A DNA stretch of 64,000 nt from a virus. Lineage: Duplodnaviria; Caudoviricetes. The DNA lies in IMG/VR virus record IMGVR_UViG_3300021387_000147, one strand, 5' to 3'. The first letter of the stretch is position 1; each line of letters starts with the position of its first letter. Below, in pieces: positions 13,270-26,099 of the stretch. A program made the translations under genes and the position numbers. The notes beneath the pieces were generated by a model. That model had not been told where the DNA came from, did no database searches, and worked only from the letters and a program-made list of their open reading frames with translations.

Positions 13270-14154
13270 TTACGATTTGGAATCATATACTTTTTTCATT
13301 TGTTTGTAAGAATTCAAATTTTGTGGGCATCCTTGTCCACCGCCTGATTTCACTAAAGTGCACAAATCATATTGTGTCACTAATACAAAGTAATTTTCAA
13401 GCCATTCTATAACCTTTTCAAGATTATCAAAATCGAATTCGTAAGTATGAATTCCATCACCAGCATATACGTGCCAATAATAAAAATCATATTTCTTTAT
13501 ATAACATTGTGATATACTTGCTGTTGATGAATTAGGTCTATATCCATTTTCATTATTATAATTCTTTCTAAGACAATAATAAGCTAAATCACGTGGATAA
13601 TTAGGTGGTTCAACTGTAAATCCATATTTTTCACTAAATGATTGTATTATATCATCATTAGATAGATTACCGATTTTATTTTTCATTAAACGTTTCTTTT
13701 CAGCATCCATCTTTTCTTTACTTCTCTTATATGGAAGTTCAAATGTTTTAGTTAACTTCTCAATAAGTTTAGCAATAGTGCATGTGCAATTATATAATTT
13801 AATGGTATGTGCTCTCCATGTATTCACATCATCTTTACTATTACTTTCAATTATATCGATTAGTTTATAACATTTTTCATCTGGATCATTCTGTTCATAT
13901 TCTGATTTACCATTTAAGATTTGACCAAAAACTAAACAAACATTCCATTGATCATACTTATCAACACGAGTCAAAACATTAGTATATCTTAGAATAAACT
14001 TTTGTTTGTTATTCTGCACATACTGTCTATAATTATAAAAATTGTTTTCAAATACATATCCACTATATTCTTTGGAATGACCTGGAGTTGCATTGATTTC
14101 ATTTAAACTTGCTACGCATTCTGTTATCATAACCTTTCCTAAATGTTTTAACAT
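13270..14154 (-). CDS. hypothetical protein
   Basis: 294-aa ORF. Confidence 0.65.
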   Translation of the reverse strand: MLKHLGKVMITECVASLNEINATPGHSKEYSGYVFENNFYNYRQYVQNNKQKFILRYTNVLTRVDKYDQWNVCLVFGQILNGKSEYEQNDPDEKCYKLIDIIESNSKDDVNTWRAHTIKLYNCTCTIAKLIEKLTKTFELPYKRSKEKMDAEKKRLMKNKIGNLSNDDIIQSFSEKYGFTVEPPNYPRDLAYYCLRKNYNNENGYRPNSSTASISQCYIKKYDFYYWHVYAGDGIHTYEFDFDNLEKVIEWLENYFVLVTQYDLCTLVKSGGGQGCPQNLNSYKQMKKVYDSKS

Positions 14155-14167
14155 ATAGTTTAAATAT

Positions 14168-14196
14168 AAAAAAAGAGAGGTTTTTGTAAACCTCTC
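14168..14196 (-). terminator. terminator of the tRNA/ncRNA array (overlaps a TTTACA -35 box)
   Basis: GAGAGGTTT-ACAA-AAACCTCTC followed by T7 on minus strand. Confidence 0.7.
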
Positions 14197-14453
14197 AGAA
14201 TGTTATTCATTCTATTTAATTTGGTGAGCAACCAAAAAATCATGATACCGTCATCCAGAGGTATAACAACAGGCTATACATGGACCGATGAGCCAATCCC
14301 TAATACATCGCTTGGGTTGCTAATCATCTTTGCCTAAGTTCATCAAGTTTCTTAAAACTTGCAAATCAATTATTCTTCGGAGATGAATAACAGACTCATT
14401 GTTCGTTTATCAGTCATCAATATAAGCATATTATTGCTGTCAGTATCATTATA

Positions 14454-14526
14454 GGCCGATTATCCAGATTTGAACTGGATCCACTTCAGTCACAGTGAAG
14501 GATGCTACCCTTACACCATAATCAGC
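14454..14526 (-). tRNA. trnH: tRNA-His(GTG)
   Basis: cloverleaf; CTTCA-CTGTGAC-TGAAG; C73. Confidence 0.85.
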
Positions 14527-14537
14527 ATAAAATTCAA

Positions 14538-14665
14538 CAAGATACAGGTTTTTTACGTCTCTTAAACGCTTTAACCGTAGTTAACTTGTAGGATTTGAAC
14601 CTACTAACATTGCTTTTCAATTAATGTATTTACCGTTTGATTGAGTTGCTGTTTAACTGTATCTT
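14538..14665 (-). ncRNA. CAGCAA-wrapper RNA copy A (T-arm cargo)
   Basis: AAGATACAG..CAGCAA ... GTAGG-TTCAAAT-CCTAC ... CTGTATCTTG. Confidence 0.7.
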
Positions 14666-14673
14666 AAACTTTG

Positions 14674-14780
14674 CAAGATTCTGTTTTTCGTGACCTCTTG
14701 AACTTAATCAAGCGCTCTCAAATCTGAGCTACAGTTCCAATAATTGGCGGAATAGACAAATGAATTGCTGTCAGAATCTT
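14674..14780 (-). ncRNA. CAGCAA-wrapper RNA copy B (D arm + anticodon-arm cargo)
   Basis: AAGATTCTGACAGCAA ... TAGCTCAGATTTGAGAGC CTTGA-TTAAGT-TCAAG ... CAGAATCTTG. Confidence 0.7.
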
Positions 14781-14784
14781 TTAG

Positions 14785-14856
14785 CAGGAGTACTAGGATT
14801 CGAACCCAGACCGTGCAGTTTTGGAGACTCACATGCTGCCATAACACTTTACTCCT
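14785..14856 (-). tRNA. trnW: tRNA-Trp(CCA)
   Basis: cloverleaf; loop CTCCAAA. Confidence 0.85.
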
Positions 14857-15087
14857 AAATTGATTATATGATTTTGCCTTCTCTAACTATAGTATAATCG
14901 CTACGAATCTCATTTTTCTGCGCATATCAGAGATTATAGACTTTTGCACATCGACTTTTTTAGCTCACGATGATTGCATGAAGATCAAATGCTTCCGAAC
15001 CGTCAACTGTTTTAACTAGCCATAAACTATCAGGCCTCAGCCATGGGGAGTATCGCAGTCCCTTTCTTTTGACGAAGAAGCGGTTAG

Positions 15088-15158
15088 TTGCCGATACTCG
15101 GGTCGAACGAATACTAAGGGCTTCAGAGACCCCTGTGCTACCGCTACACCAATCGGCA
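15088..15158 (-). tRNA. trnQ: tRNA-Gln(CTG)
   Basis: GGGGT-CTCTGAA-GCCCT. Confidence 0.85.
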
Positions 15159-15162
15159 ATAA

Positions 15163-15294
15163 CAAGATATGTTTTTTGCTTTTTACGTGCTCTACCAATT
15201 GAGCTACAAATGAGGAACTTCCTCACTCGATGGGATTCGAACCCATAACACCGGTCTTAACAGGACATTGCGTTAGAGTTGCTGCACATATCTT
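15163..15294 (-). ncRNA. CAGCAA-wrapper RNA copy C (permuted tRNA mimic, GTT anticodon loop)
   Basis: order: GTC-CTGTTAA-GAC, T arm ATGGG-TTCGAAT-CCCAT, loop-closed acceptor hairpin, D arm TAGCTCAATTGGTAGAGC. Confidence 0.8.
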
Positions 15295-15308
15295 TAAACG
15301 CTACCTTA

Positions 15309-15427
15309 CTAGATGTTTTTACTGCTTCGGAACTTGGACTCGAACCAAGAATCTTCTCTTTAAATAAGAGGTGCTTTAACCTATTAAGCTATTCTGAAAA
15401 AAGTATTTCAGTTGCTGTTAACATCTA
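15309..15427 (-). ncRNA. CAGCAA-wrapper RNA copy D (complete tRNA-Lys-like cargo)
   Basis: TAGATGTTAACAGCAA ... normal-order cloverleaf, loop TATTTAA ... AACATCTAG. Confidence 0.75.
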
Positions 15428-15438
15428 AAAGATTTTAG

Positions 15439-15511
15439 AGCCCCATGTCAGGATCGAACTGACGACTACAGTTTGGAAGACTATCATGTTAAGCCACTAC
15501 ACTAATGGGAC
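15439..15511 (-). tRNA. trnG: tRNA-Gly(TCC)
   Basis: ATAGT-CTTCCAA-ACTGT; U73. Confidence 0.85.
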
Positions 15512-15518
15512 TTAGTAG

Positions 15519-15589
15519 ATCCCCGTGCGGGAATTGAACCCGCGCCTCAACCTTGGCAAGGTCGCTTGCTACCACTACAACAACGGGAA
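15519..15589 (-). tRNA. trnG: tRNA-Gly(GCC)
   Basis: CGACC-TTGCCAA-GGTTG. Confidence 0.85.
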
Positions 15590-15872
15590 TTAAAAAAATA
15601 TCTCTTACGGTGATTTAACGTTATCCTTACTCCCATAAGGAACAATCAAGAGATTTTGATTGGAATGTTCTCCCTAGCATCGAACATACAAGCTAACTAT
15701 CTTCACATGACTTATATCTTTCATCACTACAGGATAGCGTTTTTCCGATTTGCAACTGACCATCAATCAGTCATTTGCCATGTAGCATATAAATCAACTA
15801 CGTCGCTTCTAGTAATCAACTTATAAACACTTTATCGGGAAGATATTATATTTATAACTTTAAAATTTTTAG

Positions 15873-15960
15873 AGGAGGTGGTAGGATTCGAACCTACGGA
15901 GGGCTCATCACCCTCAACGGTTTTCAAGACCGTCACCATAATCCACTCGGTCACACCTCC
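15873..15960 (-). tRNA. trnS: tRNA-Ser(TGA)
   Basis: ACGGT-CTTGAAA-ACCGT, long variable arm. Confidence 0.9.
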
Positions 15961-15964
15961 ATAA

Positions 15965-16084
15965 CAAGATACGTTTTTCTTTGTAGCCTTATCCTACTAT
16001 TAGATGACGCCAACTACGTTGACGGTCGGACTTGCACCGACATACAGGCTTGGGGTCAAGAATATCAATTGCTGAATGTATCTT
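15965..16084 (-). ncRNA. CAGCAA-wrapper RNA copy E (YrlA-like permuted tRNA mimic)
   Basis: AGCCT / GTCGG-TGCAAGT-CCGAC / CGTCAAC-GTA-GTTGGCG / D arm / AGGCT. Confidence 0.8.
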
Positions 16085-16092
16085 AAAATTTA

Positions 16093-16222
16093 AGACCAAC
16101 GGTGGACTCGAACCACACCGGTATAGCAGTTGCGACAGCTACCCATTTAACTAGTGAAACACCACGTTTCTCGACTTCATATAAATTCGCAACTTTCTAG
16201 GAAGTCTATCACTACGCTGGCC
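16093..16222 (-). ncRNA. tRNA-ended structured RNA with kissing loops
   Basis: GGCCAGCG/CGTTGGTC stem, GTGG-TTCGAGT-CCAC T arm, complementary loops AGTTGCGA and TCGCAACT. Confidence 0.7.
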
Positions 16223-16236
16223 AAATATATTTATAG

Positions 16237-16310
16237 TGCTCCATACTGGGGTCGAACCAGTGTCAAAACCTTCGTAGGGTCTTATGCTTATTCCATTACA
16301 CCAACGGAGC
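16237..16310 (-). tRNA. trnR: tRNA-Arg(ACG)
   Basis: AGACC-CTACGAA-GGTTT. Confidence 0.85.
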
Positions 16311-16388
16311 AAACTGACAGTTTAGAATCATGTGATCATCTTATCGTGAACTGTCACTACGACCTAATGCCAATTAGGATTTTTATAG

Positions 16389-16472
16389 TGGCCAGGGAGG
16401 GATTCGAACCCTCACGCCCTTTCGGGCCAATGCTTCTAAGGCACTGTTGTCTACCAGTTTCAGCACCTGGCC
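16389..16472 (-). tRNA. trnL: tRNA-Leu(TAG)
   Basis: AGTGC-CTTAGAA-GCATT, long variable arm. Confidence 0.9.
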
Positions 16473-16480
16473 ATAATCTA

Positions 16481-16563
16481 CGGAGAGTGCAGGACTCGAA
16501 CCTACAAGGCCCGAGGGCCGGCACATTAGTAGTGTGCTGCCTTACCAATTAGGCTAACTCTCC
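16481..16563 (-). tRNA. trnS: tRNA-Ser(ACT)
   Basis: GGAGAGT acceptor, GCACA-CTACTAA-TGTGC, long variable arm, G73. Confidence 0.8.
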
Positions 16564-16578
16564 ACAAAGAGAAATTAT

Positions 16579-16712
16579 CAAGATACGTTTTCGCATCGAT
16601 CGCGTCTACCAATTTCGCCATTTCCCGATGTACCGGGAAAGATGGATTCGAACCACCACATCACTTAAGATAATCGTTTTCATAGCATTAAGTATATTGC
16701 TGTATGTATCTT
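16579..16712 (-). ncRNA. CAGCAA-wrapper RNA copy F (permuted Leu-type tRNA mimic)
   Basis: variable arm, GGTGG-TTCGAAT-CCATC, TTTCCCG-GTACAT-CGGGAAA, D arm TGGCGAAATTGGTAGACGC. Confidence 0.8.
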
Positions 16713-16840
16713 AAACACTCACCGGATTCCCGATTCTCCACCGGTCAAGATGTCTATCAACTGCCCATTCTATCGGTCGACTTCTTATAGGGTACAAACT
16801 CCATCTTGGTCATTTTATTGATCGTCTATGACTTTCTTAG

Positions 16841-16924
16841 AGCTGAGAGAGGGACTCGAACCCACGAAGAGTTTCCTCCACAGTTTTGCAGACTGTGTCC
16901 TTTGCCGCTCGGATTCACCTCAGC
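16841..16924 (-). tRNA. trnC: tRNA-Cys(GCA) with long variable arm
   Basis: ACAGT-CTGCAAA-ACTGT, GAG-GAAA-CTC extra arm, U73. Confidence 0.8.
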
Positions 16925-17006
16925 ATATAAATGAAGATTTATATTGAATAATTTAATGAGTTAAACTCTGGCGACGTACCTCCAACTCAATATAAATCTT
17001 GTTTAA

Positions 17007-17076
17007 TAACGGGGGTAGGTAACGCTCCTACGGAGGCAGGCTTATGAGACCCGCTGGAATACTTATTCGCCCCGCT
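17007..17076 (-). tRNA. atypical tRNA with CAT anticodon
   Basis: CGGGT-CTCATAA-GCCTG; shrunken D arm; T loop AGCGTTA. Confidence 0.55.
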
Positions 17077-17170
17077 CGTCTTTATATTTATAACAAACAC
17101 GTCCTCTGTTTTAAGTTTTTAACTATTACGCACAGAGTCAGAAGCGCAACAGCAATTGAATGCTGAATAG

Positions 17171-17245
17171 TCCCGGAGATAGGATTTGAACCTATGACGC
17201 ACAGATTATGATTCTGTCGCTCTGACCAAACTGAGCTACACCGGA
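17171..17245 (-). tRNA. tRNA-Met/Ile2(CAT)
   Basis: ACAGA-ATCATAA-TCTGT. Confidence 0.8.
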
Positions 17246-17259
17246 ATAATCTGTTTTAG

Positions 17260-17333
17260 TGCCTCCCCTGCGTGCCGCCCGCAGCTTCTCGGATTTTCAG
17301 TCCGGTCCAATCACTGGATTTGGATTGAGAGGC
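17260..17333 (-). tRNA. trnF: atypical tRNA-Phe(GAA)
   Basis: CGGA-CTGAAAA-TCCG; T loop GGCGGCA. Confidence 0.65.
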
Positions 17334-17383
17334 AAACTAGATTTTCTTTTGATTAGTGGAGAAAATTGTAAAGAACCAATTCG

Positions 17384-17456
17384 TGGACCCGAAGGGAATC
17401 GAACCCTTCACACTCGGCTTGCAAAGCCAAATCGCCTCCTTGGATCATGCGAGCCC
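17384..17456 (-). tRNA. trnA: tRNA-Ala(TGC)
   Basis: TTGGC-TTTGCAA-GCCGA; G3:U70. Confidence 0.8.
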
Positions 17457-17461
17457 ATAAA

Positions 17462-17523
17462 CTAGATACTTTTAGCGTTCAATTATAACCAATAATGTGC
17501 TAATAAGTTGCTGTATGTATCTA
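17462..17523 (-). ncRNA. CAGCAA-wrapper RNA copy G (minimal hairpin cargo)
   Basis: TAGATACATACAGCAA ... ATTA-TTGGTTA-TAAT ... GTATCTAG. Confidence 0.7.
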
Positions 17524-17536
17524 AAACTTTTAGTAG

Positions 17537-17614
17537 TCCAGCAGGTTGGACTCGAACCAACACATACCACTGTATCAGAGTGGCTGACAGATACCAATCG
17601 TCTATTGCCGCTGG
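17537..17614 (-). tRNA. trnI: tRNA-Ile(GAT), enlarged D region
   Basis: CCACT-CTGATAC-AGTGG. Confidence 0.75.
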
Positions 17615-17622
17615 ATAAAGTA

Positions 17623-17655
17623 GACGTATAATAATGTGATCAGCATTATATACGT
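17623..17655. repeat. perfect 13-bp hairpin
   Basis: GACGTATATAATG-7nt-CATTATATACGTC. Confidence 0.7.
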
Positions 17656-17922
17656 CAATGATCTATTTTACTATTTTTACTTAAACCCTGTAAGTCAACA
17701 GCCAAAAATAGTTAAGGCGGGAACCAGTTTTTTTAACGACACGAAAACTTCTTCTCATAAAAACAAACGTCCATAATATACATTAGTTTAGACTCATCAT
17801 CCTTAATATGGAATTAGTAGCATCGGAGTGTGTCCCATTTTTATCGGAAAAACTTGAACCATCAAAACGACTAGCATGCATGTTATAGAGTCCTCGCATA
17901 GCAGAGCTATCTCTTTGGGTAG

Positions 17923-17997
17923 TTCTCGGAGAAGGATTCGAACCTTCGACTTCCAACTTGTAAGGATGGCACTCTGAACCAACTGAGTTACCCGAGA
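17923..17997 (-). tRNA. trnV: tRNA-Val(TAC)
   Basis: loop CTTACAA, canonical D and T arms. Confidence 0.85.
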
Positions 17998-18007
17998 ATA
18001 AATTTAT

Positions 18008-18077
18008 CAAGATACATCTTTTATTCTGGAATCATTTTGTGTGATAGAAATAAAATTTGAGTTGCTGTGTGTATCTT
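18008..18077 (-). ncRNA. CAGCAA-wrapper RNA copy H (minimal)
   Basis: AAGATACACACAGCAA ... ATCA-CACAAAA-TGAT ... TGTATCTTG. Confidence 0.7.
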
Positions 18078-18085
18078 ATCTTTAG

Positions 18086-18158
18086 TACCCCTCCCGGGAT
18101 TCGAACCCGGATTATCGCATAGAAAGTGCGATGACCTAAACCGTTAGTCGAAAGGGGC
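18086..18158 (-). tRNA. trnE: tRNA-Glu(TTC)
   Basis: TCGCA-CTTTCTA-TGCGA. Confidence 0.85.
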
Positions 18159-18407
18159 AAAATTATCCATTGCTTCACGTCTGCCAATCTCTGTTATTGA
18201 AGCTCTTTGTTAAGGTGCCTTTCCACTGTCCTACCGAACTATGCAGTAGCGCTTTCAGCAAATTATTCTCGTCAGAAACTTAACTTCCCGGACTTAAATC
18301 TAAAATTACTTAATCGATGTTTTCATTTTAAATTCAATGGATAGTAAATGCGCAGGAAAATGACCGACCATGACCTTTCCGGAATATCACTATTGTATCA
18401 TTCTCCA

Positions 18408-18518
18408 ACAAATCATATATTCTTGTCGGGATATGAATGGACTCGAACCATCGACCTTTCTCTACTGAACGCTCTAACCAACTGAGCTACACACCCCTTA
18501 GTCCAATATATGATTTGT
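18408..18518 (-). ncRNA. tRNA body with truncated anticodon arm inside a 14-bp duplex
   Basis: ACAAATCATATATT/AATATATGATTTGT flanking intact D and T arms; anticodon arm reduced to TTC-AGTAGA-GAA. Confidence 0.7.
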
Positions 18519-18524
18519 AATTAG

Positions 18525-18598
18525 CGACACCGGAGGGATTCGAACCCTCGAAAGCCGGTTAGACAGACCGGTGGAATAGACCACTATCCGACGGTGCC
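18525..18598 (-). tRNA. trnD: tRNA-Asp(GTC)
   Basis: CCGGT-CTGTCTA-ACCGG; G73. Confidence 0.85.
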
Positions 18599-18739
18599 AT
18601 AAAAGAAATTAGTTATTGTAGACTACCTGAATTCATCCTATATGATAGCATTACTACAAATTAAAGAGCATTGAATAAGTACCGCGTCCTTAACATTAAG
18701 CGCCCTTGTCCGGCGGATGCGCTGCTCACCTAATTTTAG

Positions 18740-18815
18740 TAGCGGGTCTGGGAGTCGGACCCAGTATTGCGAAGCTTATGAGGCTTGCGTGATAAATCCG
18801 TTTCACTCACCCGCG
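18740..18815 (-). tRNA. trnM: tRNA-Met(CAT), initiator-like
   Basis: C1xU72 mismatch, CGCGGG acceptor, loop CTCATAA; lacks three G-C anticodon pairs. Confidence 0.7.
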
Positions 18816-18826
18816 ATAAAAGCATT

Positions 18827-18948
18827 TAATTCATTGGAAACCCCTTGTTTCTACTTGGCTGTAGGTATATTGAACTTTAACAAACAAAATTTATAAAGCT
18901 ATACCTACCGCCGGGATTTGAACCCAATTTTACGATAACAATGAATTA
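18827..18948 (-). ncRNA. T-arm-containing structured RNA
   Basis: TAATTCATTG/CAATGAATTA closing stem, GGG-TTCAAAT-CCC, GTAGGTATA/TATACCTAC stem. Confidence 0.6.
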
Positions 18949-18952
18949 TTAG

Positions 18953-19025
18953 CGCTGGAGGAGGGATCCGAACCCCCGACCGGTGCATTACAGGTGCACT
19001 GCTCTACCAACTGAGCTACTCCAGC
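18953..19025 (-). tRNA. trnT: tRNA-Thr(TGT)
   Basis: GTGCA-CCTGTAA-TGCAC. Confidence 0.8.
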
Positions 19026-19109
19026 TAAATGACCTCTTTGATACAGTCTAGAGTCGAGGTCAGTCCTCTAGTAAAGACCTAGTTTGTTTTGGCTCTAGGT
19101 CACCATTCG

Positions 19110-19182
19110 CTGTCCTTCCTGGACTCGAACCAGAGACTACTCGATTAACAGTCGAGTGTTCTACCAACTGAACTAAAGGACA
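19110..19182 (-). tRNA. trnN: tRNA-Asn(GTT)
   Basis: CTCGA-CTGTTAA-TCGAG. Confidence 0.9.
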
Positions 19183-19189
19183 ATAATAG

Positions 19190-19261
19190 TGGACCCATAG
19201 AGAATCGAACTCTACCATCAGTCGTGCAAGGACCAATCGCCTCCTTGGTACATGTGAGCCC
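19190..19261 (-). tRNA. trnA: tRNA-Ala(TGC), second copy
   Basis: TGGTC-CTTGCAC-GACTG; G3:U70. Confidence 0.8.
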
Positions 19262-19349
19262 AAATAATGTAATTGAAAATTAAATTGAGAATTCTTTAGC
19301 AAGTGAATTTCGAATATCTTGTGTTACGCCGGAATTTTTTAACAGGTTA

Positions 19350-19381
19350 AATATAATAATTATTAAAGAACTTGTAAACCC
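19350..19381 (-). promoter_or_regulatory. internal promoter of the RNA array
   Basis: GGGTTTACA-17-TATATT. Confidence 0.75.
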
Positions 19382-19454
19382 TGTTTATTAAAAAATCTTC
19401 CAATTTTTTTGTTGTTATATTATTTATATAACGAACATTTCAAATTTTGCAGAC

Positions 19455-19610
19455 TTAGTAGTCATAATTATTTGTTTTCTTTTCTTTAACTACTTTGATT
19501 CCTGCCTGTTTAGCAAAAGACTTTGCCAAGTTTCTCATTTGCTTCCAACGCTGTTCCTTTTCAGCCTGGATTTCTTCTTTTGTTTTCTTCACCTTAGTAT
19601 TCTTCTTCAT
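19455..19610 (-). CDS. small basic protein (51 aa) inside the tRNA array
   Basis: MKKNTKVKKTKEEIQAEKEQRWKQMRNLAKSFAKQAGIKVVKEKKTNNYDY; AAGGA RBS; not in ORF track. Confidence 0.6.
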   Translation of the reverse strand: MKKNTKVKKTKEEIQAEKEQRWKQMRNLAKSFAKQAGIKVVKEKKTNNYDY

Positions 19611-19634
19611 AAACAATTCCTTTTGTTAAACTTT

Positions 19635-19772
19635 CTAGATGCCTTTATTATCGTCCGCATGCTTTAACCACTTGCATACCTCTCCACGTTATGGAGAGTG
19701 AAGGATTCGAACCTCCGAAGTCGTGAGACCAGCGGTTTACATTGATAAATTTTGTATTGCTGAGTGCATCTT
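19635..19772 (-). ncRNA. CAGCAA-wrapper RNA copy I (permuted Tyr-type tRNA mimic)
   Basis: GTAAA-CCGC, variable arm GTC-TCAC-GAC, GGAGG-TTCGAAT-CCTTC, CTCTCCA-TAACG-TGGAGAG, D arm, GCGG. Confidence 0.8.
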
Positions 19773-19775
19773 TAG

Positions 19776-19853
19776 TCCACGGAGTAGGACTTGAACCTAC
19801 ACATAGGACCTTATAAGAGCCCCTGCCTGATACCAATCGGCTATTGTCCGTGG
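19776..19853 (-). tRNA. trnI: tRNA-Ile(TAT)
   Basis: GGGCT-CTTATAA-GGTCC; same enlarged D region as Ile(GAT). Confidence 0.75.
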
Positions 19854-19921
19854 ATAAAAATGATTTAATTTATTAACGCAGTTTACTCTGCTCCGAAGGA
19901 ATTGCACCTTCACATCTTTAG

Positions 19922-19992
19922 TTGTCCATGATGGAGTCGGACCACCGCCAAAGGATTCAAAGTCCCCTATACTACCGCTATACGAATGGACA
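19922..19992 (-). tRNA. trnQ: tRNA-Gln(TTG)
   Basis: GGGGA-CTTTGAA-TCCTT. Confidence 0.85.
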
Positions 19993-20295
19993 ATAAACAT
20001 CACGGCTCATCAACATAGTTGACATTTATAGTGCTGCCGAATATTTTTACACTTTACGATCTATGGTATCGATGGCCTTACATAGATTAACCTTCCAGTA
20101 AGAAAACCAGAGGTGGATTTGGAGACAAAATAAAACTTTAAACTATCTATATCACCCTAACTATTCTTTCATGGATTCGTCAGTTCCAATATTGGGTGTA
20201 ACCCGTCCAATATTACACTATTCACCAGACTTACCTTAGCTCTTTATGACTTAAGGTCGGTATTACTCAAATAGTCTACAGATAATTTAATTTAG

Positions 20296-20369
20296 TACTC
20301 CGAGAAGGGGTCGAACCTTCAACCTACGCTTTAGAAGAGCGTTGCTCTAATCCATTGAGCTATCGGAGC
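20296..20369 (-). tRNA. trnR: tRNA-Arg(TCT)
   Basis: ACGCT-CTTCTAA-AGCGT. Confidence 0.9.
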
Positions 20370-20375
20370 ATATTA

Positions 20376-20444
20376 CAAGATAGGTTTTTCTGCGTGTTAT
20401 TCCCAAAATGAATTTGCATAAGTATTTGTTGCTGTATCTATCTT
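20376..20444 (-). ncRNA. CAGCAA-wrapper RNA copy J (minimal)
   Basis: AAGATAGATACAGCAA ... ATTC-ATTTTGG-GAAT ... CTATCTTG. Confidence 0.7.
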
Positions 20445-20447
20445 TAG

Positions 20448-20521
20448 TAGTCCCATTTGGCGTCGAACCAAATTTTCCAGGTTGAAAACCTAGCGTCCTA
20501 ACCATCGTAGACGATGGGACC
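20448..20521 (-). tRNA. trnE: tRNA-Glu(TTC), second copy
   Basis: CTAGG-TTTTCAA-CCTGG. Confidence 0.85.
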
Positions 20522-20742
20522 AAAATGACTTTTTGTCACGTACTAAGTCTAAAAGCGCCTCGCAGAACCATTGTGTTGCCAGTCATTGTCGCGGTAATCT
20601 GGAGCTCGTAGAAAAGAAACCACTTCAGCCGCGATTCGATTTCTTCTCATTCACCATGCTACCGATTTAGGATGTCGGCATCTTCCGATATTACGCAGAC
20701 GAGGTTTGTACCTTTTACCTCCAAGCATGACTTTGTTTGTAG

Positions 20743-20815
20743 TGCCCCAGGAAGGACTCGAACCTTCAACCCACGGATTAAGAGTCCGCTGCGCTACCAA
20801 TTGCGCCACTGGGGC
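20743..20815 (-). tRNA. trnK: tRNA-Lys(CTT)
   Basis: GCGGA-CTCTTAA-TCCGT. Confidence 0.9.
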
Positions 20816-20940
20816 ATAAAAGTACCGACAATAAATCCATGTAAGCTTCCATTTCATTATTGCCTTGCTAGAAGTTCAACTGCATCGTGCGTATAGGATT
20901 CAAACCTTAATTGAACCTCTAACTAAAACTTTATTTGTAG

Positions 20941-21015
20941 TCGGAGTGGTAGGATTCGAACCTACGACTTCTTGAATCCAGATCAAGCACGCTGACCAGA
21001 CTGCGCTACACTCCG
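20941..21015 (-). tRNA. trnP: tRNA-Pro(TGG), atypical loop
   Basis: CGGAGTG acceptor; CTTGA-TCTGGAT-TCAAG. Confidence 0.75.
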
Positions 21016-21021
21016 ATTTAG

Positions 21022-21105
21022 TGGCCAAGGTGGGACTCGAACCCACACGGCATTACTGCCAAGGGATTTTAAGTCCCCAGTGTCTACCAATTCCACCACA
21101 AGGCC
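21022..21105 (-). tRNA. trnL: tRNA-Leu(TAA)
   Basis: GGGGA-CTTAAAA-TCCCT, long variable arm. Confidence 0.85.
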
Positions 21106-21322
21106 AAAAGAAAAATAATTCATTAACAAGTTAGTGCAGACTGTTTTCGTCCTACTCATCTGCATCCCGGGTGACTTTCGTGCCCTTGTTACATAGGATT
21201 TCATTTATATCACCTCACTCAGGTATAGCCGCCGTTATGCGCAATGACAAGCTGACTATTCAAGTAAGAACTTCTGTTCCTGGCAGGCCAATATGTCCAG
21301 CGAAGCAATGAATTATTTTTAG

Positions 21323-21398
21323 CTGGGAAGACAGGACTCGAACCTGTGAAAACTGGGGCATTAACAGTGCCGTGGCATACCAACTTGCCGACAACCCA
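21323..21398 (-). tRNA. trnN: tRNA-Asn(GTT), second copy
   Basis: GGCA-CTGTTAA-TGCC; acceptor mismatches. Confidence 0.7.
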
Positions 21399-21409
21399 AT
21401 AAATGATAG

Positions 21410-21493
21410 TGCCTGTGGGTGGATTCGAACCACCAAAGCCGAAAGGCACCGGTTTTACAGACCGGGGATGATCTCCAACTCATCAGCACAGGC
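21410..21493 (-). tRNA. trnY: tRNA-Tyr(GTA)
   Basis: CCGGT-CTGTAAA-ACCGG, variable arm. Confidence 0.85.
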
Positions 21494-21720
21494 ATAAAAA
21501 CTTTTGTAGGTTTAGAGAGTTCCTACTTCTCAGTGGGCTACCACCAAAGCATTCAGCCTTTTGAAGTCCTCAACTGTAGAGGGCGTTCCAACTTCTCCAG
21601 AACGAAGGCTGAAAAAGCCGTATGAGGGCAAAAAGCGCCGGCATACAAGATAAAACTTGCAGGAATTATTTTATATGCCTTTCACCGAATGAATATATTG
21701 ACTGCAATCAATATTTAGTG

Positions 21721-21797
21721 TAACCTCTAAGGGGATTCGAACCCACCGTTTCCCGACTCAACGTCGAGCGTCCTAGTCCATGCTAGACGACAGAGCA
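21721..21797 (-). pseudogene. degenerate tRNA (Glu-like body, TTG anticodon)
   Basis: CTCGA-CGTTGAG-TCGGG; imperfect acceptor and T stems. Confidence 0.5.
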
Positions 21798-21813
21798 TTC
21801 GGTTTTTTGTTAG

Positions 21814-21887
21814 TCGGGATAGAAGGATTCGAACCTTCGACCACTCCGCCCCAAACGGAGCGCTCTACCAGACTGAGCTACATCCCG
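21814..21887 (-). tRNA. trnP: tRNA-Pro(TGG)
   Basis: CTCCG-TTTGGGG-CGGAG. Confidence 0.9.
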
Positions 21888-21970
21888 CTGATTTTAGGCT
21901 CTTTCTTCCGCCACTGAGGAAGCGAACTTGGCTGATTGCGGCACACAGTACCTAAACTTTTTAATTTTAA

Positions 21971-22043
21971 TGGGCCAAGCGGGGATCGAACCCACGACTC
22001 CTACATTAAAAGTGTAGTACTCTACCAGCTGAGTTATTGACCC
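21971..22043 (-). tRNA. trnK: tRNA-Lys(TTT)
   Basis: CTACA-CTTTTAA-TGTAG. Confidence 0.9.
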
Positions 22044-22279
22044 AAAACTTCGTCCCTTACTCGAATATATGCATCTACTCTTTCGTGGGCTTGCATCCAT
22101 CTTTTCACTAAGTCAATCGGCTTCGAACCGATCTCTCCGGCATGACTTTTCTGGCCGGTGTTCCAACCCAATTCACTGTTTTCTTAGCAAATCAACTTCA
22201 ACCATTTTTGTTTGACAGAGTTTCATTCTCGCCTCCGCTTTATCTTCCCTATAGCAACGGAGAAAACCATAGCATGTAG

Positions 22280-22361
22280 TCGGTAGGGAGGGACTCGAAC
22301 CCTCACACCTTTCGGTACTGGATTTTGAGTCCAGCGCGTCTACCAATTCCGCCACCTACCG
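22280..22361 (-). tRNA. trnL: tRNA-Leu(CAA)
   Basis: CTGGA-CTCAAAA-TCCAG, variable arm. Confidence 0.9.
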
Positions 22362-23213: not shown

Positions 23214-25226
23214 TTACTTATTGATAAAAATATAATTTCCAATTACTAATGCCGCACCTACTCGGCCAGACTTGATCCATGAGTCCCAACAGTCATTTGC
23301 TAAATTACATGTTGGTGAATTATGAATATTGAAAGAAGTATTGATTAACATCTTATTACCAGTCTTTCTTTCATACTTATCCAGAATTTCCCATGCATCT
23401 TTTGTAAATTCATCATTTTCGTAAATGAACTGCGCACGTGCAGTGTTATCTACGTGAACACCACCACGATACTTTTCCTTTACGCCCTTCTTACAATCCA
23501 TAGTCATTGCCATAAATCTGCAAGAAGCTTCACCAACCTTCCAGTTATTGAATAATTCATTTGCTGAAGTATTCTTACATACTGGACAATATGGCATATA
23601 TTCTGAACGTCCCATCGCTTGATTCAATGTATGAGTACCATTTGGGTCTTGTGCTGTATACAAAGTACTATGATTCATCAAAGCACGTGGACCAAATTCT
23701 TCATTACCTTGACACCAATGAACAATCTTATTATCTGCCAACAAATCAGTGACAATATCAATCAATTCATGTTTATCAGGACAATATCTAACTTCTAGAT
23801 CTTTTTCCTTAATTGCATCATCTACAACATGGTCAATCAAATATCCAGTGTGGTCAATATTAGTACCACCATTAATAATGATATTTGGACCAACATACTT
23901 CAATGCAACACTATCCTGAACACTATCAGTTGCCTTCAAATCTTCAATATAACGATAGAATGCACAACCAATTGCAGTACCTTCATCACCCATTGGAGGA
24001 GATACAAAGACTGCATCAAACTTTCCTGTATCTTTAATACGCTGATTCAACTTAACATTAGCTACCAAGCCACCTGCAGTATACAATACAGCACCATCTT
24101 CAAAATCTGTTGCAGACAACCAATTTAGAATTACTTTTTCTGCAAAAACCTGAACTGCGTATGCCAATTCCCATGGTGTATACTTCATATCAGATGGAAT
24201 TTCCTTGTTATGATTCAACATATCAAGAATATCATCTTTATTATAATTGTTTCCTAGACGATCCTGAACAAACTTATAGACAGTGTTCTTTAATCTTAAG
24301 AAACGTTCAAAGTCAATAATAGTTGATGTCTTTACCATTTCTTTCTGTTCATCTGTCAATGGCAATAATAGATTTTCATCAACCCAGAAACCAGATGTTG
24401 AATAGTTAAATGTCTTACCATTCAATGTTTCTGTCTTATAAACGTTAATAGCTTCACCTAATTCATCCTTACCAGTCAATGTCTTCAATAAGTCATGATA
24501 AACTTCCATTGCCTTCTTAGGATTCTTTTCACAATGTGCAGCCAATCCAGTCACCTTACCTTCATGCTGGTGTTCCTTAAATTGTAGAGCACCAGTAAAG
24601 AACTGATAAATCAAAGCTGGACTATCAATTACTCTAATCTGAGAAATTGGATAACTTTCATCAATTCCTTGGAATAGAGAAATACGTCCTGAATAACCAT
24701 CACCAAATCCATCAGCAGTCATTGTATAGAAACGCTTAACTGTGCATGGATATTCATTCCAATAAACTGGGAATGCAGAGAAGATGTGTGCTGTGTGGTG
24801 TTCTACTCTCTTTAATACAGGATTTAGAACACGTGTATTTGTCTGCATTCTAATATATAAATTCAAGAACTGAGAAAATGCATATTCTGCCTGAATTAAT
24901 GGATCAGTACTTACATTCTTTGCTTTCTTAAAATACTGTTCTAGTTGTGGTCTCCACAAATCTGGAATATTCTTCAATAGATATGCTTCAGACAATCCTT
25001 CATAGTGAGAATAAACCAATTCATCTACAACGATTGGATGACCTAACTTATTTTCTGCTTCAATAATACATGCCTTAATAGCATCTAATGGAAGTTGCTT
25101 TGTATTCTTCTGTCTGTTTAAACGTTCTTGAGAAACAGCACAAAGAACTCCACTTCCTGCCTTAAAGATTGCGGCAGAGCTATTAAAACCTAATGAAATA
25201 CCAATATAAATTTTTTCTTTATTCAT
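23214..25226 (-). CDS. carbamoyltransferase (NodU/CmcH family)
   Basis: SQERLNRQKN, EHHTAH, DGFGD, EGKVTGLA, GGLVANVKLN, GDEGTAIG, EFGPRAL, HVDNTARAQ, INTSFNIH. Confidence 0.92.
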   Translation of the reverse strand: MNKEKIYIGISLGFNSSAAIFKAGSGVLCAVSQERLNRQKNTKQLPLDAIKACIIEAENKLGHPIVVDELVYSHYEGLSEAYLLKNIPDLWRPQLEQYFKKAKNVSTDPLIQAEYAFSQFLNLYIRMQTNTRVLNPVLKRVEHHTAHIFSAFPVYWNEYPCTVKRFYTMTADGFGDGYSGRISLFQGIDESYPISQIRVIDSPALIYQFFTGALQFKEHQHEGKVTGLAAHCEKNPKKAMEVYHDLLKTLTGKDELGEAINVYKTETLNGKTFNYSTSGFWVDENLLLPLTDEQKEMVKTSTIIDFERFLRLKNTVYKFVQDRLGNNYNKDDILDMLNHNKEIPSDMKYTPWELAYAVQVFAEKVILNWLSATDFEDGAVLYTAGGLVANVKLNQRIKDTGKFDAVFVSPPMGDEGTAIGCAFYRYIEDLKATDSVQDSVALKYVGPNIIINGGTNIDHTGYLIDHVVDDAIKEKDLEVRYCPDKHELIDIVTDLLADNKIVHWCQGNEEFGPRALMNHSTLYTAQDPNGTHTLNQAMGRSEYMPYCPVCKNTSANELFNNWKVGEASCRFMAMTMDCKKGVKEKYRGGVHVDNTARAQFIYENDEFTKDAWEILDKYERKTGNKMLINTSFNIHNSPTCNLANDCWDSWIKSGRVGAALVIGNYIFINK

Positions 25227-25235
25227 GATTTTCCT

Positions 25236-26099
25236 TTAATTTGATACTTTTACAATACCTTCGACAACAGCAAGATTATACAATCTCTTGTTATTGTTCT
25301 CTAAATATAATAATTTTTTATCATTTGGCATACCATCAACAGTATTATGTTTCAAACTTTTTATTTGTGTATAAAGTTGTGATGATTTTGTCAATAATTT
25401 CTTTTCATTAATTAACAATGGTAAACGTGGATTTTGTATTGCTTCTAAGATTTCAGCTTTATCTTGTTTAAAATAACAATGAGCAGAGATAGCAAAATGC
25501 TGATAATATCCTGTTGGAATATTCAATTCATTTGCAATTCTCTTTTGAATTGATGTAAAGTAAAATACATCATAAGGCATGCATCCAATAATATCATTAC
25601 TTCTCATACATGCTGTGCAATTCAATTTACCATCCAAAATATAGAATGACAAATTAAATGTACAAATCTCATCAAAGCATGTTCCTCTATGTGGATTTGG
25701 AACATTAAAATTTATAACTGCTCTACGAGATGTTGGATCTTTTTTCAAAATATCAATGACTTGTTTTTCTTGGTCAAATCCATATCTTTGATGAACTATA
25801 TGACCATAAGCAGAATTCGAATAAATACCATCTTCTGATTTTCTTTGAAAGCCTGGAGCTTTAAAATAATTAATAAATTCTAGCTTTTCATCTTGTAGAT
25901 TAAACCAGATTTCTTCAGCTAACAAATATCCAATATCTATAGAATAAAATAATGGTATATTATTATTCACATCAGTTAATTGGAAACCAAAATTACAAAT
26001 TTCTAATGGACCTTTTCCACCTCTTTGTTGACCGTTATCATAGATTTCTCTGATAACATCTTCAAAGATACTAGTCATCGAATTTGAAATAATCATCAA
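25236..26099 (-). CDS. thymidylate-synthase-fold dCMP hydroxymethylase-like protein
   Basis: DPTSRRAV, catalytic ICT, MRSND, PYDVF (Asp at the specificity position as in T4 gp42). Confidence 0.8.
   Translation of the reverse strand: MMIISNSMTSIFEDVIREIYDNGQQRGGKGPLEICNFGFQLTDVNNNIPLFYSIDIGYLLAEEIWFNLQDEKLEFINYFKAPGFQRKSEDGIYSNSAYGHIVHQRYGFDQEKQVIDILKKDPTSRRAVINFNVPNPHRGTCFDEICTFNLSFYILDGKLNCTACMRSNDIIGCMPYDVFYFTSIQKRIANELNIPTGYYQHFAISAHCYFKQDKAEILEAIQNPRLPLLINEKKLLTKSSQLYTQIKSLKHNTVDGMPNDKKLLYLENNNKRLYNLAVVEGIVKVSN

Follow-up and report, generated by a model that had tools for sequence, protein, structure and literature searches.

The tRNA array

The window analysed here is a stretch of 64,000 nucleotides (nt), a section of the 141.7-kb virus record IMGVR_UViG_3300021387_000147 from IMG/VR. 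The record is linear, has a G+C content of 32.5% and is rated as 47% complete by CheckV. On the minus strand of the window lies an array of about 35 transfer RNA (tRNA) genes, none of which encodes the terminal CCA. At positions 74-76, directly behind the discriminator base N73, 29 of them carry the triplet C-T-A (C-U-A in the RNA). This pattern is real and is under selection.

ARAGORN identified 30 tRNA genes at 14454-22361, every one on the minus strand. The Rfam tRNA covariance models recovered 29 of these 30 and added two candidates (18428-18496 and 19779-19850). At a low threshold, ARAGORN reported three more genes, namely Phe-GAA (17260-17333), Ala-UGC (17384-17456) and an initiator-like Met-CAU (18740-18815), and reset the Rfam candidate at 19779-19850 to 19776-19853, where it reads as tRNA-Ile(UAU). 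With the anticodon-less tRNA at 18428-18497, the working set comprises 35 genes: the 30 ARAGORN genes and five lower-scoring tRNAs found by Rfam or by low-threshold ARAGORN. The discriminator base is identical in the two programs for 25 of the 29 genes found by both. For Gln-CUG and the long-arm GCA tRNA, two of the four genes in disagreement, pairing in the acceptor stem favours the end given by ARAGORN. It should be mentioned that ARAGORN coordinates run one base past those of Rfam, since this program appends bases that match a CCA tail, which in the present genes means C74.

The genes are listed below. Coordinates include the trailer triplet, and the discriminator is joined to positions 74-76 by a hyphen.

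14452-22361, minus: tRNA array of about 35 genes, none encoding CCA, 29 with C-T-A at 74-76 (ARAGORN and Rfam)
14452-14525, minus: tRNA-His(GUG), encoded G-1, C-CTA (ARAGORN)
14782-14856, minus: tRNA-Trp(CCA), G-CTA (ARAGORN)
15085-15158, minus: tRNA-Gln(CUG), U1-A72, A-CTA; Rfam alignment one base shorter at each end
15322-15398, minus: tRNA with UUA anticodon (ochre-suppressor type), G-CAG, exception
15436-15511, minus: tRNA-Gly(UCC), T-CTA
15516-15589, minus: tRNA-Gly(GCC), T-CTA, 7-nt spacer CTACTAA before the next tRNA
15870-15960, minus: tRNA-Ser(UGA), T-CTA
16234-16310, minus: tRNA-Arg(ACG), A-CTA
16386-16472, minus: tRNA-Leu(UAG), A-CTA
16478-16563, minus: tRNA-Ser(ACU), G-TAG, 8-nt spacer before the next tRNA, exception
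16838-16924, minus: 84-nt tRNA with long variable arm and GCA anticodon, T-CTA
17168-17245, minus: tRNA-Met(CAU), A-CTA
17257-17333, minus: candidate tRNA-Phe(GAA), non-canonical T loop, A-CTA (low-threshold ARAGORN)
17381-17456, minus: second tRNA-Ala(UGC), G3-U70, A-CGA, exception (low-threshold ARAGORN)
17534-17614, minus: tRNA-Ile(GAU), acceptor stem CCAGCGG/CTGCTGG, A-CTA
17920-17997, minus: tRNA-Val(UAC), A-CTA
18083-18158, minus: tRNA-Glu(UUC), A-CTA, wrapper stem directly after
18425-18497, minus: tRNA-like gene with shrunken anticodon arm, without CTA (GAC or ACA according to the boundary used), exception (Rfam)
18522-18598, minus: tRNA-Asp(GUC), G-CTA
18737-18815, minus: initiator-like tRNA-Met(CAU), C1:U72 mismatch, A-CTA (low-threshold ARAGORN)
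18950-19025, minus: tRNA-Thr(UGU), G-CTA
19107-19182, minus: tRNA-Asn(GUU), G-CGA, exception
19187-19261, minus: tRNA-Ala(UGC), A-CTA, 7-nt spacer CTATTAT
19773-19853, minus: tRNA-Ile(UAU), paralogue of 17534-17614, A-CTA (Rfam and low-threshold ARAGORN)
19919-19992, minus: tRNA-Gln(UUG), A-CTA
20293-20369, minus: tRNA-Arg(UCU), A-CTA
20445-20521, minus: tRNA-Glu(UUC), A-CTA, wrapper stem directly after
20740-20815, minus: tRNA-Lys(CUU), A-CTA
20938-21015, minus: tRNA-Pro(UGG), A-CTA
21019-21105, minus: tRNA-Leu(UAA), A-CTA, 6-nt spacer CTAAAT
21320-21398, minus: tRNA-Asn(GUU), G-CTA
21407-21493, minus: tRNA-Tyr(GUA), A-CTA, 11-nt spacer
21811-21887, minus: tRNA-Pro(UGG), A-CTA
21968-22043, minus: tRNA-Lys(UUU), A-TTA with the Rfam boundary, exception
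22277-22361, minus: tRNA-Leu(CAA), A-CTA

Conservation of positions 74-76

With the boundaries set by ARAGORN, N73-C-T-A is found in 26 of the 30 genes. The exceptions in the working set have CGA (two genes), TTA, TAG, CAG or GAC (one gene each). Position 74 is occupied by C in 32 of the 35 genes, by T in two and by G in one, and position 75 is T in 30 genes and C in none. The sequence-only reading made earlier of this DNA had counted by hand about 28 CTA trailers among 34 tRNA genes and no CCA, and had considered this too consistent for random trailers. Both statements are confirmed by the automated boundaries, under which CTA keeps its place at positions 74-76; the count and the list of exceptions in that reading (two CGA, two TTA, one TAG and one TAT) differ only in detail. 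In the spacers of the array itself CTA accounts for 2.06% of the trinucleotides, and the binomial probability of 29 in 35 on this background is about 2e-43. It is about 4e-24 when the share of CTA among CCA-less phage tRNA genes in general (9.7%) is taken instead.

At position 74 the information content reaches 1.5 bits, at position 75 it is 1.27 and at position 76 again 1.5. Position 77 carries less than 0.7 bits, with A in 22 genes and G in none, and little information is found from position 78 onward. The 5' leaders are also conserved: T is present at -4 in 26 of the 35 genes, at -3 in 32 and at -1 in 29, and A or T is present at -2 in 34. The frame of each gene can be written as UUAU-[tRNA]-N-C-U-A-(A). 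The shortest spacers (CTAAAT, CTATTAT and CTACTAA) look approximately like the leader and trailer motifs fused together. Some longer spacers contain a stem-forming element, called the wrapper here and described below. Where the wrapper stem begins at position 77-78, N73-C-U-A-A is the sole single-stranded linker between it and the tRNA.

Two simple explanations of the motifs were considered and rejected. Pairing of leader and trailer does not lengthen the acceptor stem, since UUAU and N-C-U-A form no helix. The boxes of T4 late promoters do not account for the "TA", since TATAAATA follows CTA in just one or two genes.

C74 in other tRNA genes

Phage tRNA genes were sampled from IMG/VR, blind to the trailer, by means of one T-arm sequence. 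The sample contains at least 586 tRNA genes from at least 80 loci, and genes that share a locus are not independent. Among the 586 genes listed, CCA is encoded in 43.5% and C74 is present in 87%. Among the 331 CCA-less genes listed, C74 is present in 78%, the triplet CAA in 23% and CTA in 9.7%. Phage arrays are of two kinds: CCA is encoded in nearly all genes, or in none, with C74 kept nearly throughout. C74 is complete in whole CCA-less arrays of 22, 24, 25 and 20 genes (22/22, 24/24, 25/25 and 20/20). Other arrays fix other triplets, CAA in 77-79% of the genes of two arrays (L140 and L040) and CAT in 62% of those of a third (L187). In a complete scan of IMG/VR, two adjacent canonical tRNAs both with CTA were found in 58 stretches, many of them on contigs of 140-460 kb. 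Adjacent CAA-CAA pairs were found in at least 119 stretches, at least twice as many.

When bacterial and archaeal genomes were scanned for tRNA genes with CTA at the 3' end, mainly Bacteroidota were obtained (48 of 120 loci), and most of the other tRNA genes in the loci found have C74. In Bacteroidetes, CCA is mostly not templated (PMC5143459). The genome of Prevotella merdae (G001; L351-L380 and L499) has C74 in all 38 distinct tRNA genes sampled and CCA in five. Its positions 75-78 carry at most 0.4 bits, with CAA in nine genes, CAT in six, CTT in five and CTA in two, and its RNase P RNA retains the GGGUA motif of L15.

Since CCA-less genes of phages and of the Prevotella genome alike keep C74, this base is not special to the present phage. 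C74 is the ordinary rule of CCA-less tRNA genes, and the fixation of U75-A76 is the unusual part. The sequence-only reading had regarded CTA as a selected processing signal, and would have given this up if tRNA genes of the host and of unrelated phages showed the same bias. Those of other phages do so for C74 and do not for T75-A76 (CTA in 9.7% versus 83%). This means that selection on the triplet stands, and that the C is lost as a phage-specific part of it. Neither N-CUA trailers nor a nearly universal C74 in CCA-less genes were found described in the open-access literature.

Relatives of the phage

A megablast search of the array against 50,697 GenBank phage records gave no close relative, only three short tRNA matches. 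Close relatives were located through the neighbouring carbamoyltransferase gene or a spacer motif. In two of them, L003 and L471, CTA is present in 9 of 14 and 8 of 11 tRNA genes, respectively. The sequence past CTA differs in the relatives, and sometimes the tRNA body as well; because of this, CTA is not merely hitchhiking. In L003, tRNA-Asn reads G followed by CTAAAGAATGG, where the tRNA-Asn of the window (19110) reads G followed by CGA. The CGA of the latter looks like the result of a 4-nt deletion in the CTAAAG trailer that L003 still has.

Two of the contigs with CTA, G007 (424 kb) and G008 (416 kb), have terminal repeats and represent complete genomes. The terminase, which served as a marker for relatives, has an ATPase half that is 73-74% identical to that of the window in these two genomes. 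The carbamoyltransferase, also tried as a marker, is absent from G007-G011. ARAGORN finds 50 tRNA genes in G007 and 47 in G008, and CTA follows the discriminator in 27 and 30 of them, respectively; allowing a 1:72 mismatch in the two initiator-like Met genes of G008 would add these two to its CTA genes. Five genes of each genome have CGA. TAA or TAT occurs mainly where the next tRNA starts within 3-8 nt. When G007, G008 and the window are taken together, C74 is missing in 15 of 41 trailers with a spacer of 10 nt or less, versus 13 of 78 others (Fisher P = 0.02), a weak trend that links short spacers to trailers without C74. The best-kept base across the clade is A76, found in 45 of 50 genes of G007 and 39 of 47 of G008. 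In the giant rumen phages of this clade, selection has fixed U75-A76, which is a clade-specific form of the common habit of keeping only the first C.

Strains exchange tRNA bodies exactly, while the flanks stay 89-96% identical, for example between L471 and the window at 14000-17240. In an RNA contig (record 2 of run X1), about 814 nt replace an 89-nt tRNA segment at 16834-16922 of the window. As far as the aligned strains tell, the arrays are fine-scale mosaics.

Processing enzymes

G007, G008 and a further genome, G009, each encode a protein of 398-429 amino acids (aa) in which a PolyA_pol head (PF01743, 100-105 bits) is joined to an RNA-binding domain (PF12627, 37-41 bits). The NCBIfam model that fits it best is "CCA tRNA nucleotidyltransferase" (NF009814; 225-235 bits, below the cut-off of 290). 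In G008 the protein has 398 aa and is encoded at L560:781-1977 on the minus strand. The protein is a putative CCA-adding-type (class II) nucleotidyltransferase. In G008 its gene adjoins that of an RNA ligase of the T4 Rnl1 type (L560:781-3208; G008:C1, about 269-271.5 kb), and the pair looks like a module for tRNA repair and maturation. No gene of the RNase Z, RNase T or PemK type was found in the complete relatives. The 141.7-kb piece, about half a genome, has no TROVE, RNase_T or PemK match.

The expectation of the sequence-only reading that the precursors require trimming and a CCA-adding enzyme is in agreement with these results: the triplet occupies the site of CCA, and a putative enzyme of this kind is encoded in complete relatives.

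Proposed maturation pathway

From the pattern, its conservation, the generality of C74 and the nucleotidyltransferase of the relatives, we infer that these are CCA-less tRNA genes of a "first C only" type, from which the trailer is trimmed after the RNase P cut and CCA is then rebuilt. The probability of this reading is put at roughly 0.55. In the first step, RNase P would cleave the 5' end of each precursor behind the conserved U-U-A-U leader. In the second, cellular nucleases would strip the 3' trailer back to C74 or N73. In the third, a CCA-adding enzyme would finish the end; this might be the phage's own enzyme in the complete relatives, and otherwise that of the host.

The leader and C74 are both at positions with which RNase P could interact. 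Within this enzyme, recognition of positions -1 and -2 falls to the RNA and that of -3 to -8 to the protein (PMC11143913). C74 can pair with the second G of the GGU motif in L15 of the RNase P RNA; the pairs in Escherichia coli are G292-C75 and G293-C74 (PMC1874595, PMC11143913). For U75, in our view, a wobble with the first G of this motif would be the best that can be formed. C74 might be retained because CCA-less genes generally do so, because the finished tRNA needs it, and because it can pair with the GGU motif. U75-A76, usually with A77 next, might serve to begin the trailer with A/U-rich, non-CC sequence and so keep a finished-looking CC end out of the long transcript.

Several observations weigh against this scheme. 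It does not account for U75-A76, whereas in most of the other CCA-less arrays A75-A76 is preferred or no preference is seen. The nucleotidyltransferase was found in the complete relatives G007 and G008, but the 47% complete 141.7-kb piece has no match to PF01743 (PolyA_pol) or PF01909 (NTP_transf_2); no match to PF12706 (Lactamase_B_2) was found in the piece either. Moreover, the enzyme shows no link to CCA-less or CTA arrays. Of the records with a completeness of at least 88%, three of nine CCA-less phages encode it, versus two of four CCA-templating phages. G026, which is 91% complete and has CTA in five of seven genes, has no nucleotidyltransferase. Finally, 20 public RNA runs from 11 studies contain the array or part of it, and four sheep-gut metatranscriptome runs span the whole of it, as assembled contigs, which show neither molecule ends nor untemplated bases. 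Among the rows listed for four RNA runs there is no T-to-C difference at position 75; such contigs are uninformative on maturation.

Alternative explanations

N73-C-U-A(-A) might be a true processing signal, either a CCA mimic that is purposely no finished end and is read by RNase P through a C74-G pair and a U75-G wobble, or a nuclease target that leaves C74. We consider this unlikely. If it were true, maturation of the phage tRNAs would be partly uncoupled from the host pathway, and in the nuclease version only C75-A76 would be added, by the phage's own nucleotidyltransferase.

A related and equally tentative explanation is that C-U-A(-A) is a dedicated 3' processing box, within which a phage or host endonuclease would cut. 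A cut after C74, for instance, would leave no more than C-A to be added. The strong conservation of positions 75 and 76 (1.27 and 1.5 bits, versus at most 0.4 in Prevotella), the absence of G at position 77 and the single-stranded state of N73-C-U-A-A alone in front of the wrapper stems would all suit such a box. So would the survival of the triplet at a divergence of 73-74% terminase identity, and the 58 stretches with CTA-CTA neighbours in the whole of IMG/VR, many on contigs of 140-460 kb. However, no candidate nuclease was found: neither the piece, about half a genome, nor the complete relatives gave a match of the RNase Z, RNase T or PemK/MazF type. The triplet is also missing in 17% of the genes here, 36% in G008 and 46% in G007, essential isoacceptors included, and other arrays have CAA or CAT fixed in its place.

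It may also be supposed that host RNase Z cuts right after the discriminator, and that C-U-A was selected merely as a single-change break of the CC antideterminant. Dutta, Malhotra and Deutscher (JBC, 2013) reportedly saw cleavage by E. coli RNase BN/Z when either C of CCA was replaced by A or U. CCA does block RNase Z (PMC1874595), and the single transition that removes C75 is C to T. This explanation is nevertheless doubtful. The RNase Z of Bacillus subtilis requires U74 in its pocket, its natural substrate being U73 followed by U74-A75-A76 with the cut after U73 (PMC11649783, PMC8943300), whereas C74 is present here in 32 of 35 genes. For RNase Z of the ELAC2 type, the strongest antideterminant is C74 itself, enhanced by C or U at position 75 (PMC11649783). 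C-U-A therefore looks like a poor RNase Z substrate, and the argument drawn by the sequence-only reading from the inhibition of RNase Z by CCA cuts the other way. In addition, if C74 were removed by the cut, its conservation would want a separate reason.

That CTA is an unselected relic is still less probable. Encoded CCA could have decayed, by deamination of C75 to T in an AT-rich genome, or the flanks could have been copied together with tRNA cassettes; a G+C content of 32.5% and the mosaic arrays, with their recombination of tRNA bodies and flanks among strains, are compatible with this. However, 35 genes of anciently diverged isoacceptor types keep positions 74-76 while the sequence from position 78 onward is near random, and the orthologues of the relatives retain CTA despite changed sequence behind it. 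A76 is kept in 39 of 47 and 45 of 50 genes across the clade. In the Prevotella genome the C74 rule is alike, yet positions 75-76 are unconserved. Neutral decay of CCA is unlikely in view of the contrast between 74-76 and the positions behind, and of a conservation that is seen throughout the clade but not in Prevotella.

The proposal of the sequence-only reading that CTA shields precursors, until maturation, from toxins or nucleases aimed at CCA ends finds no support and is highly improbable, even though the CCA-adding-type enzyme and the Rnl1-type ligase beside it in relatives are reminiscent of a module for tRNA repair. Mature ends are what such toxins act on, the tRNAs need CCA to function and hence become targets regardless, genes with C74 only are the rule in a cellular (Prevotella) genome too, and the surroundings of the array have no toxin or defence context.

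The pattern of the trailers has several consequences. It separates a general rule (C74 almost always templated in CCA-less genes of phages and of a Bacteroidota genome) from a clade-specific one (U75-A76 in giant T4-like rumen phages). The C74 rule predicts that 3' maturation in these systems departs from the U74/RNase Z model of B. subtilis. Trailers (full CCA, C only, or a particular triplet) may be of use in sorting phage tRNA arrays into groups and perhaps in narrowing the range of host lineages. For annotation, it should be mentioned that the 3' ends of these tRNA genes are not CCA.

Other elements of the array and its surroundings

The wrappers form a family of spacer elements on the minus strand with the form AAGAT-NNN..CAGCAA(C/T) ... 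AAAAAC-NNN-ATCTTG. In the window they lie at 14530-14781, 15160-15300, 16061-16165, 16632-16725, 17460-17533, 18000-18082, 19749-19773 and 20375-20444, and they were also found beyond it (L406:2133-2160, L485, L387 and L428). Covariation is seen in their closing stems, such as AAGATTCTG/CAGAATCTT and AAGATATGT/ACATATCTT, and several wrappers surround tRNA-like pieces. In other phage arrays, some of which have amber-suppressor tRNAs, the wrapper motif stands directly after an encoded CCA. The Rfam family YrlA (Y RNA-like) has a weak match at 15156-15276 (35.7 bits; cut-off 69). A TROVE/Ro gene was not found in the 141.7-kb piece. In two of the four RNA runs, contig depth at 17604-17870 reaches 2731 (X1) and 703 (X3), versus tens to a few hundred elsewhere in the array, contig depth being a poor measure of expression. 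This region, the 308-nt spacer on the downstream side of tRNA-Val, may give rise to an abundant small RNA. In phage T4, two small stable RNAs of unknown function, rnaC and rnaD (L004:20909-21172), lie right behind the tRNA cluster; they may be comparable to the non-tRNA elements in the spacers of the present array.

Three of the tRNAs are unusual in themselves. The tRNA with the UUA anticodon (15325-15398) would read the UAA stop codon, and L471 carries the same gene with the same CAG trailer. The tRNA at 16841-16924 has a class II shape together with the Cys anticodon GCA, and its best Rfam match is tRNA-Sec (40 bits; cut-off 47). The tRNA-Ser at 16481-16563 has the rare anticodon ACU. Directly upstream of the array, at 23214-26099 on the minus strand, a 670-aa carbamoyltransferase (Carbam_trans_N and Carbam_trans_C) and a thymidylate-synthase-like protein are encoded. 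This pair suggests hypermodification of DNA bases.

Comparison with known systems

Among known systems, the pathway of T4 (RNase P cleavage, removal of a non-CCA trailer and addition of CCA) seems to fit best. The work on CCA-less tRNAs of T4 goes back to Deutscher, Foulds and McClain (1974) and Seidman and McClain (1975), as cited in PMC11143913. T4 tRNA-Pro and tRNA-Ser template no CCA, and RNase P favours CCA over UAA at the 3' end of the Ser precursor (PMC11143913). Four of the eight T4 genes have CCA; of the others, Pro has A-C-U, Gln has G-C straight before the next tRNA, Ser has UAA and Ile has UAU. The two phages are alike in having a compact tRNA array and untemplated CCA, which calls for trimming and for rebuilding by a tRNA nucleotidyltransferase, and C74 is kept in T4 Pro and Gln. 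They differ in that the four CCA-less genes of T4 share no triplet (CT, C, TAA and TAT), whereas here none of 35 genes has CCA and 29 have CTA. Furthermore, T4 is said, on the strength of the 1974 study, to rely on the host nucleotidyltransferase, whereas relatives of the present phage encode a putative one of their own.

The CCA-less genes of Bacteroidetes (Ardell and Hou 2016, PMC5143459) also have untemplated CCA, and those of P. merdae share with the phage C74 (38 of 38) and a preference for U at -1. However, positions 75-77 in P. merdae are just A/T-rich and variable, whereas U75-A76 is nearly fixed in the phage. The precursors of B. subtilis RNase Z (Pellegrini et al. 2003, 2012, as given in PMC1874595, PMC8943300 and PMC11649783) are similar in lacking CCA and in passing through an endo- or exonucleolytic 3' step before CCA addition. 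Their U74 enters the pocket of the enzyme, whereas the phage genes have C at this position in 32 of 35 cases.

With regard to the interaction of the RCCA end with RNase P RNA, C74 of the phage tRNAs could pair with the GGU of L15, U is present at -1, and the motif is kept in Prevotella; C75, however, is found in none of the 35 genes and is replaced by U. The CAA arrays (L140 and L040) and the CAT array (L187) are similar in design, with C74 in all or most genes and one dominant triplet (62-79%), though this triplet is not CTA. CCA-less phage tRNA genes and their repair by nucleotidyltransferase are known since the work on T4, and what is described here is a CTA clade of rumen phages, not a new system.

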